Assembly: GCA_029856105.1 (NCBI GenBank)
Contig: JAHQWH010000034.1
Span: 1 to 51,523 of the forward strand
Direction: 5' to 3'
Origin: Promethearchaeia archaeon
GTDB taxonomy: Archaea > Asgardarchaeota > Lokiarchaeia > Sigyniarchaeales > SOKP01
Length of the DNA: 51,523 nucleotides
Shown one piece after another: positions 8,348-48,347 of the stretch (positions within the stretch are counted from its first letter, which is position 1; each line of letters opens with the position of its first letter). The notes under the pieces are model-generated. The model was not told the DNA's origin and did not search any database. It saw only the letters and a program-made list of their open reading frames with translations. The translations under genes were made by a program, and so were the position numbers.

Positions 8348-8872
8348 TTATGTTTGATTTGCATAAAATATAAGCCACTTTGCCATGGCTTGAAACGATT
8401 CGTTTATGTTTATATTTTCTTTTGAAGAAGTGAAAACGCATTGATTGCATTTAGCATTTTGGGCGTATTCATTTGCGATTTCGAAATCCACTTCGTGGTT
8501 CGCTAAATCCCACTTCATCCCCATAAGAATAATAGGTACAAATCCTGCTTTTTTCCGAATAATTTTTAGCCAACCTGGAATTTCTCTGAAAGTATCGTAA
8601 TCCGTTATATCAAAGCAAATAAACGCACCACTAGCACCTTTACAATAGTCTGGTAAAAGCTCTCGGAAGCGTTTTTCTCCTGCGAAGTCCCATAATTGCA
8701 TTTTTACAGACTCTCCGGTGTCAAGGACTTCTGACTTTGTGTGGAATCCCGCACCTATAGTCATCTTATAGCCTTCTTCAAATTTTCCCGTACAATATCG
8801 AGCCACCATAGCAGTTTTTCCCACACCACCTGCTCCTGCTACGATTACTTTAAAAATCCATGAACTCATCAT
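8348..8872 (-). CDS. Rab-like small GTPase
   Basis: GAGGVGKT, TIGAGF, WDFAGE, MKWD, TSSK; no C-terminal prenylation cysteines. Confidence 0.92.
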   Translation of the reverse strand: MMSSWIFKVIVAGAGGVGKTAMVARYCTGKFEEGYKMTIGAGFHTKSEVLDTGESVKMQLWDFAGEKRFRELLPDYCKGASGAFICFDITDYDTFREIPGWLKIIRKKAGFVPIILMGMKWDLANHEVDFEIANEYAQNAKCNQCVFTSSKENININESFQAMAKWLIFYANQT

Positions 8873-9100
8873 TTTTTTTCATGAATTATTTTTTTTTAAT
8901 TATATTAAATAAGAATTTATTTTTATAATGTTGTTAATAATAAAACCTAAAAACCAAATTAATCAATTCCTTATAAAAACTTAACATTTTTAAAATTATA
9001 CAAAACCAAAATAAAAAAAGGTTTTTATAAGATTTAGTTCTATTATTTTTTAGTACTGTATTTTAATAAGTTTCAATAATAAAGGTTGTGAAAAAGGAGT

Positions 9101-9448
9101 ATTAAAGAAGAAGACATTTGTCCGGTATGTAGTTTTCCGAAAGACCTATGTATATGCGATAGTTTAAGCGCAGATGAACAACAAATCATTATCTCTAACG
9201 ATCGAAGGAAATGGGGGCGTGTGGTTACAGTTATCACCTTCGAAGGAAATATAGACGCAAACTTAAAGGATATTCTTACGCAAGCTAAAAAGAAATGTGC
9301 TTCTGGGGGAACTGTTAGAGGAAATTTAATCGAGCTTCAAGGTGACCACAAGTTCAAGTTGAAAAAATTTTTAATTGACTTGGGCTTCCCTGAAGAAAAT
9401 ATTATCATTCGACAAGGGATGATGAAGAAACCATATAAAAAGCGATAA
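9101..9448 (+). CDS. aif1: Translation initiation factor aIF1 (SUI1), probable ATT start
   Basis: SUI1 motifs KKKCASGGTV..IELQGDH; frame extends 5' of 9221 through zinc knuckle CPVCSFPKDLCIC to an in-frame TGA at 9089; no ATG/GTG/TTG before the knuckle. Confidence 0.9.
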   Translation: MKEEDICPVCSFPKDLCICDSLSADEQQIIISNDRRKWGRVVTVITFEGNIDANLKDILTQAKKKCASGGTVRGNLIELQGDHKFKLKKFLIDLGFPEENIIIRQGMMKKPYKKR

Positions 9449-9534
9449 AATAATAATAGTACCGGTAGTTCATTTGCATTTTTTTTTATTCTATTTAAAT
9501 TTTAAAATTTAAAAAAAAGATAAATTAGATTTCT

Positions 9535-19327: not shown

Positions 19328-20140
19328 TTATAGACCTTTTATGTTTGTTTCTTTAATAGCTTCTTCTACTTCATAATTTTTATGAACAATTAAATAAAGC
19401 GCTTTCACAACTTTTGTCGGATTATCCGCCTGAAAAACATTTCTTCCATAGGCAACTCCAGCGCCTCCAACATCTATGGATTGCTTAGTGGTTTCTAAAA
19501 GTTCTTTAATCCCCGCCTTAACGCCTCCTGCGATAATTACTGGTGCCATGCACCCCTCAACTACTTCACTAAAAGAATCAGGGTCCCCCGTCCAATTAGT
19601 TTTCACAATATCTGCCCCTAGTTCAGCAGCGACTCTTGCTGCTATTTTAACAACCTCAAAATCGTGTTCATTTTCGATCTTTTCCCCCCTAGGATACATC
19701 ATAGCCAAAAGGGGCATTCCAAACTCTCGGCATTCACGTGAAACTACACCTAGAATTTCTAGCATTTCTGGATCTGTCTTTGCTCCAATATTAATATGCA
19801 AAGATACGCCATCGGCTCCTAATTTTACTGCGTCTAAAACATTATTAACTAAAACTTTATAATTTGACTTGGGACTTAGAGAAGTTGAACCAGATAAATG
19901 TAAAATTAAGCCAATATCTGGACCATATCTTCTATGGGCGTATAATGGAATCCCTATATGTCCTAAAACGGCATTTGCCCCCCCTAAAGCTATTTTGTTT
20001 ACCATCTCACCTAAATTTCTTTTAATTCCTTTAATAGGACCTACAGTTAATCCATGGTCCATAGGAACTATGATCGTCTTATTTGTTTCCCTATTAAAAA
20101 TTCGTTCTAATCTAATTCTTTTGCCTATATAACCCGAAAT
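19328..20140 (-). CDS. DhnA-type class I aldolase / ADH synthase (AroA'), probable ATT start
   Basis: VPMDHG, AMMYPRG, AAELGADIVKT, GRNVFQ; frame extends upstream through IGKRIRLERI to ATT at 20140 with GGTGA 7 nt upstream. Confidence 0.9.
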   Translation of the reverse strand: MSGYIGKRIRLERIFNRETNKTIIVPMDHGLTVGPIKGIKRNLGEMVNKIALGGANAVLGHIGIPLYAHRRYGPDIGLILHLSGSTSLSPKSNYKVLVNNVLDAVKLGADGVSLHINIGAKTDPEMLEILGVVSRECREFGMPLLAMMYPRGEKIENEHDFEVVKIAARVAAELGADIVKTNWTGDPDSFSEVVEGCMAPVIIAGGVKAGIKELLETTKQSIDVGGAGVAYGRNVFQADNPTKVVKALYLIVHKNYEVEEAIKETNIKGL

Positions 20141-34604: not shown

Positions 34605-34711
34605 TAGCGGGGACTGGAATCTCAGATTGTTGTAAATCAAGCAAAATCTTTTGAACCAGTGTTCTCAGGGTTATGAGCCCTGCGGCATAAACCAGGCTAG
34701 CCCACCCCGCT
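34605..34711 (-). tRNA. Initiator tRNA-Met(CAT) with a 31-nt intron at 59/60 (34619-34649)
   Basis: A1:U72 acceptor AGCGGGG/CCCCGCT; CAGGG-CTCATAA-CCCTG with three G:C pairs; BHB TTCA/TGAG with AAA and ATT bulges. Confidence 0.94.

Positions 34712-45012: not shown

Positions 45013-48347
<3,335 letters not shown>

Follow-up and report, generated by a model that had tools for sequence, protein, structure and literature searches.

A probable AUU start codon of the aIF1 gene in a Lokiarchaeial family that uses AUU, AUA and AUC starts widely

The gene for the initiation factor aIF1 (SUI1) in this Asgard archaeon is very probably translated from the AUU codon at position 9101 of the window, which denotes the whole stretch of 51,523 nucleotides that was analyzed. 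Comparison with relatives strongly supports the AUU start put forward in the preliminary description, and the layout is conserved across a whole Lokiarchaeial family. The Asgard assignment made there fits as well, given that near-identical NCBI proteins carry the labels Promethearchaeota or Lokiarchaeota. The features discussed below are listed in Table 1.

Table 1. Positions and strands of the features discussed; entries with a contig number refer to this genome (G000), the others to the window.
Feature	Position	Strand	Basis or remark
Putative BRE/TATA-like promoter block AAAGGTTTTTATAAGATT	9017-9034	+	near-invariant in 62 distinct family upstream sequences
Conserved block TCTATTATTTTTTAG, predicted transcription start region (about 9052)	9039-9053	+	family alignment
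Split Shine-Dalgarno (SD) GGTTGTGA	9084-9091	+	6/8 match to GGAGGTGA; ends 9 nt before ATT 9101
Out-of-frame mini-ORF GTG AAA AAG GAG TAT TAA	9088-9105	+	stop overlaps ATT; not conserved; regarded as incidental
TGA closing the aIF1 frame upstream	9089-9091	+	read from the sequence
aIF1 (SUI1) coding sequence	9101-9448	+	115 codons plus TAA (9446-9448); PF01253 and NF002096 matches
Proposed ATT start codon of aIF1	9101-9103	+	substitution periodicity, profile alignment, homologous positions
N-terminal zinc knuckle of aIF1, CPVCSFPKDLCIC	9119-9157	+	translation; knuckle codons pN/pS 0.126
Internal GTG (Val), not a start	9221-9223	+	codon not conserved in relatives
Run of nine T, possible archaeal terminator	9479-9487	+	judged from the sequence alone
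DeoC-family aldolase	19331-20140	-	ATT start behind GGTGA
Initiator tRNA, anticodon CAU	34605-34711	-	A1:U72 pair, GGG/CCC anticodon stem; pattern search
uS4	C7:10306-10806	-	ATC start behind AAGGTGAT; protein IGDPRR...
AUH-started gene, example	C19:11652-12455	+	
AUH-started gene, example	C225:17882-18832	-	
AUH-started gene, example	C194:96618-98519	+	
AUH-started gene, example	C161:52115-53254	+	

The aIF1 gene and its start codon

Downstream of the TGA, the aIF1 frame reads AAA AGG AGT, ATT (9101), AAA GAA GAA GAC, ATT (9116) and TGT (9119), the first codon of the knuckle. Neither ATG, GTG nor TTG occurs in this frame between the TGA at 9089 and the knuckle at 9119, and the earliest canonical start is the GTG at 9221. 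Re-reading the coordinates thus bore out the earlier observation that the knuckle lies in frame 5′ of this GTG with no canonical start between it and the TGA. The product carries the archaeal CxxC...CxC pattern N-terminal to the SUI1 domain. It matches Pfam SUI1 (PF01253) with 55.5 bits against a cut-off of 25.5 (E 8e-15) and NCBIfam NF002096 with 107.6 bits against a cut-off of 98 over profile positions 2–101, position 2 aligning with residue 4 as counted from ATT 9101. This is the one SUI1/aIF1 match in the genome, whose completeness is 92%.

We gathered the locus from 68 distinct assemblies representing 12 genera of one Lokiarchaeial family. An in-frame canonical start before the knuckle is missing from 61 of the 68 distinct loci, and an ATG start was found in none of them. 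Given this recurrence in 12 genera, the layout can be ascribed neither to chance nor to error, and the objections foreseen in the preliminary description, namely ATG in the reads or in relatives, do not overturn AUU. The common family layout is (A)AGGTTGTGA, 9 nt and ATT AAA GAC GAC GAN ATT TGT. Genera g12, g17 and g20 have a TAG or TAA one or two codons 5′ of the ATT, which leaves ATT as the only codon available, and ATC occupies the position in three of the six g16 loci. The seven loci with an in-frame GTG belong to genera g14, g18 and g21, plus one from g15, and may use this GTG as their start. Six of them have it within the SD-like block with a spacer of 8 nt rather than 9, and the seventh (L077, g15) has it at the start position itself.

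Among 35 distinct sequences, the codon periodicity of substitutions sets in exactly at the A of ATT 9101. The pN/pS ratio is 0.118 for codons 2–40 versus 0.134 for codons 41–100; the knuckle region is constrained like the rest of aIF1, which indicates that it is translated. At the third base of the start codon, 32 of the 35 sequences have T, three have C and none has G. Given that synonymous sites in the family are near saturation (pS 0.58–0.76), a non-AUG start appears to be selected at aIF1, and ATG appears to be avoided. Of the two ATT codons considered in the preliminary description, that at 9101 stands as the start. The other, at 9116, was rejected, since it is 24 nt away from the SD and codes for the conserved Ile that precedes the first Cys.

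The element at −17 to −10, GGTTGTGA, is invariant in the 35 distinct sequences, while the 9-nt spacer between it and the ATT varies in its bases without periodicity; genus g22 has GGAAGGAA where the others have GGTTGTGA. The 3′ end of the 16S rRNA, located in this window, reads ...GGATCACCTCCT, and its duplex with GGTTGTGA amounts to −7.9 kcal/mol, typical of SD-led genes in this genome (median −8.3 to −8.5 kcal/mol). The GTGA of the element lies at −13, against a genome-wide optimum of −10/−11, so that the spacing exceeds the optimum by 3 nt. The AGGAG at 9095–9099, also proposed earlier as an SD, ends 1 nt before the ATT and is confined to the closest relatives, and thus is not the working SD; the invariant element is GGTTGTGA. 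Farther upstream, about 75 nt from the ATT, the archaeal BRE/TATA consensus points to a promoter at 9017–9034. The block at 9039–9053 lies 26–27 nt 3′ of the TATA box centre, and we infer a transcript that would start near 9052 and carry a leader of about 49 nt with the SD inside. A hairpin in this leader (9050–9057 with 9098–9105) was rejected, given its z-score of −1.5 and the pairs broken in relatives without compensating changes.

Beyond the family, the start codon of aIF1 is more varied. The homologous position in Lokiarchaeia holds ATA in families f5, f7 and part of f2, TTG, GTG or ATG in the rest of f2, ATG or TTG in f6, and ATG in f4. In the other Asgard families, 36 of 40 sampled aIF1 loci were readable; these mostly start with ATG, and GTG was seen in five families. 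CTG is found at three loci of f12 (L272, L274 and L275), a Heimdall-like family, where it is preceded by AGGAG with no canonical start, and possibly in f9. Outside Lokiarchaeia, ATA occurs in f14, f20 and one of two f19 loci; GGAGG or GGAG precedes the ATA in f14, f19 and f20 and also in f7 (L279, L287, L289; L311, L312). Thus ATT 9101 would give a fidelity-factor gene a non-canonical start that is kept in 61 of 68 loci of the family but not across the phylum.

Eight relatives (L302–L310, e.g. G005:C60:41000-41760) possess a second, diverged aIF1-like gene with 57%–63% identity, laid out as GAGGTGA, 8 nt, ATT (ATA in two) and AAA GA. It could be a paralogue or a contamination of the assembly bins, and no such gene was found in this genome.

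AUU, AUA and AUC starts across the genome

The start codons of the genome were surveyed at ORFs of at least 100 codons with a nearby 5′ stop and a 5-mer SD core in register. These sites comprise 200 ATG, 43 TTG, 15 GTG, 41 ATT, 24 ATA, 7 ATC and 71 other codons, as compared to 66 ATG, 12 ATT, 8 ATA and 66 others for composition-matched control motifs. Furthermore, GGTG at −11/−12 precedes ATG 44 times, TTG 20, GTG 6, ATT 13, ATA 11 and ATC 7 times, but each of the control triplets AAT, TAT, TTA, AAA, GAT and ACT only 0–3 times. The SD register of ATT, ATA and ATC, hereafter AUH, is the same as that of ATG. By this classification, which relies on the SD and has control motifs that partly resemble an SD, AUH codons would make up roughly one fifth of the strongly SD-led starts. 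A strict floor is given by 39 genes with a strong SD and an AUH codon in which a stretch of at least 15 codons contains no canonical start. In six of ten genes checked, a Pfam domain begins a few residues from the ATT or ATA, and the first canonical start falls within the domain. Counted from the AUH start, profile positions 1–146 of Gtr1/RagA align with residues 1–146, and positions 1–199 of AFOR_N with residues 9–207.

Two genomes of a sister family, in small samples, also contain AUH starts, with 6 versus 42 canonical in G032 and 9 versus 25 in G038. In G038 (family f2) aIF1 has a canonical start, apparently TTG, and a tie between the aIF1 start codon and genome-wide AUH use is hence not supported. 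A scan by codon-usage log-odds for coding-like extensions 5′ of the first canonical start turned up many long genes without a canonical start; it ranked aIF1 358th, being too weak for short Cys-rich heads.

Four AUH-started control genes were traced in the same family, in a sample of 45 genomes; C225:33348-35882 was dropped from the controls, as it is not conserved in the family. Ribosomal protein uS4 starts with AUH in 4 of 30 genomes (ATC in three including this one, ATA in one) and with ATG in the other 26; the gene reads ATC GGA GAC CCA here and ATG GGA GAT CCA in most relatives. The aldolase at 19331–20140 shows ATT in 14 relatives, ATA in one, ATG in 12 and TTG in one, with swaps within genera. 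A ThrC-like gene has AUH in about 24 of 30 relatives and a DHPS-like gene has ATT in all 30, so that aIF1 is not the only gene to conserve its ATT. The aIF1 gene is at the conserved end of the control range and is not alone there. With AUH starts common genome-wide, even at uS4, the idea in the preliminary description that AUU singles out aIF1 did not hold, and the codon is not exceptional in the genome in the way that the start of infC is. That so many genes start with AUH suggests only mild discrimination against such codons in this lineage.

Possible feedback of aIF1 on its own start

ARAGORN and Rfam found few tRNAs in the genome and no tRNA-Met, and the one initiator tRNA, of ordinary type, was recovered by pattern search. 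About 30 nt are inserted in the T-arm region of this tRNA, which was missed by ARAGORN and by Rfam at the gathering score. No initiator-like tRNA with another anticodon was found in the genome search, in which the recovered tRNA set is incomplete. Given the anticodon CAU, AUU would be read with a third-base mismatch. In a putative model for initiation, the SD would position the 30S subunit at the AUU of aIF1, Met-tRNAi would pair with the codon despite the mismatch at the third position, and the protein would begin with Met. The AUU of aIF1 would then be one instance of a lineage habit of AUU, AUA and AUC starts. Since aIF1 should act against such codons, a degree of negative feedback on aIF1 synthesis would be automatic.

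Related arrangements of translation-factor genes are known from other systems. In bacteria, the AUU start of infC, the gene for IF3, has been demonstrated to be under translational autocontrol, and AUU-type starts are very rare in E. coli. The gene prfB for RF2 is autoregulated by a programmed +1 frameshift. Eukaryotic eIF1 is reportedly autoregulated through the poor context of its AUG, a finding attributed to Ivanov et al. in 2010, a work cited in PMC6237735 and PMC4705826. Like infC, aIF1 is the gene for a factor acting against non-canonical starts and itself appears to start at AUU behind an SD. However, its fold is unrelated to that of IF3, AUH starts are common here, and the aIF1 case is known from sequence, whereas regulation was demonstrated for infC. 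As the orthologue of eIF1, aIF1 likewise has a suboptimal initiation site, but the site of eIF1 is an AUG with a weak Kozak context on an mRNA that is scanned, and that of aIF1 a near-cognate codon placed by an SD; the combination of an AUG, a conserved weak context and a scanned leader is thus not what is seen at the aIF1 AUU. With prfB, aIF1 shares the role in translation and an in-frame stop adjoining the start-proximal sequence, but it has no conserved slippery site and its upstream frame is not conserved.

It is possible, though we consider it doubtful, that AUU has been retained because aIF1 represses its own weak start as IF3 does at infC, which would fix both the aIF1 level and the stringency of start-codon selection. 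In favour of such feedback, G is absent from the third base of the start despite near-saturated synonymous sites, the SD is invariant together with its 9-nt spacing, and the SD–ATT layout recurs at the second aIF1-like gene of the eight relatives. Near-cognate aIF1 starts also recur (ATA in f5, f7, f14, f19 and f20, CTG in f12). IF3 discriminates against AUU, AUC and AUA (PMC4611024). A passage of PMC4705826 citing Hasenoehrl et al. states that Sulfolobus solfataricus aIF1 rejects AUU in vitro on a model mRNA, which makes feedback mechanistically plausible. Against it, AUH starts are so common that the rarity marking infC is absent, the DHPS-like and ThrC-like genes keep AUH codons in all 30 and in about 24 of 30 relatives, respectively, aIF1 is mostly ATG-started outside Lokiarchaeia, and AUH starts persist in G038 despite its canonical aIF1. 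Feedback would thus be a reasonable consequence that the comparative data do not single out, and we regard it as tentative. The aIF1 AUU may also, though this is doubtful, be the sensor of a homeostatic loop that clamps the efficiency of AUU, AUA and AUC initiation in a lineage in which such codons would start about one fifth of the SD-led genes, a ribosomal protein among them. If aIF1 did control translation from its AUU, tuning of start-codon stringency via the weak start of a fidelity factor would occur in all three domains of life, with the archaeal example found in the closest lineage to eukaryotes.

It is very improbable that ribosomes initiate at GTG 9088, which is out of frame, and enter the aIF1 frame through a +1 frameshift or by terminating and reinitiating at ATTAA, where the two codons overlap. 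This GTG is invariant in most genera and the TAA of its five-codon ORF overlaps the ATT, but genus g22, with GGAAGGAA, lacks the GTG, and the g16 loci bearing ATC lack the stop of the mini-ORF. In two loci, L019 and L021, the out-of-frame codon at this position is ATG or TTG; there, however, the NTGA reads as an SD core (GAGATGA, GAGTTGA) 6 nt before an ATA. The GTG has no SD at a workable distance, and the variable spacer lacks both a conserved slippery site and codon periodicity, whichever frame is taken. The conserved shift site and 0-frame upstream start of a prfB-like arrangement are likewise missing. A knuckle-less protein starting at GTG 9221, or the loss of a start by assembly or sequencing error, can practically be dismissed: products of 69–91 aa do exist in public collections, made by gene finders limited to ATG, GTG and TTG, but purifying selection acts on the knuckle as on the rest of aIF1, the layout recurs in 61 independent assemblies, and the codon at 9221 is not conserved among relatives (GTG 21, GTT 19, ATT 6, ATA 4, GTC 3, ATC 2, GTA 1, GAT 1).

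Public records and other features of the window

Translation from AUU 9101 agrees with some public records. The NCBI records of relatives, named YciH, already begin with MKDDDIC, which corresponds to the ATT start. The JGI and ENA calls of aIF1 are truncated to 69–91 aa, and those starting at or after GTG 9221 lack the whole knuckle. The ENA protein of one relative (P0001) begins with MWKKSIK, in that a TTG before the in-frame TGA was used and the TGA was read as Trp, a miscall attributable to the missing canonical start. TGA 9089 as a sense codon after TTG 9086 was considered separately and rejected, as genus g12 has TAA or TAG next.

In the literature searched, we found no paper on an AUU start or autoregulation of aIF1, and none on frequent AUH starts in Asgard archaea. 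For AtubA in an Asgard metagenome-assembled genome, an upstream ATT start was proposed and called rare (PMC13394414). In both cases the deposited Asgard protein is too short, and an upstream ATT, plausibly spaced from a ribosome-binding site, restores it. Unlike the present analysis, that paper treats a single case and is silent on aIF1 and on genome-wide frequency. Whether or not there is feedback, aIF1 is truncated by gene finders that accept only ATG, GTG and TTG, as probably is a considerable fraction of Lokiarchaeial proteins. Analyses of domains, localisation and phylogeny in Asgard proteomes would be distorted by such truncation.

The aIF1 gene is divergent from a Ras/Roc-family small GTPase gene with an ATG start (8348–8872, minus strand), and the two share an AT-rich intergenic region of 228 nt. 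At its left edge (1–322 and 402–503), the window contains the 16S rRNA 3′ end and an intron-containing tRNA. The 23S rRNA gene (45014–48345) lies 44 kb from the 16S, and the rRNA genes are thus unlinked. Elsewhere in the genome, a heterodisulfide-reductase-like ORF (G000:C57:6154-6708, plus strand) runs on upstream of an in-frame TGA and is coding-like on both sides of it; this TGA may be a selenocysteine codon.
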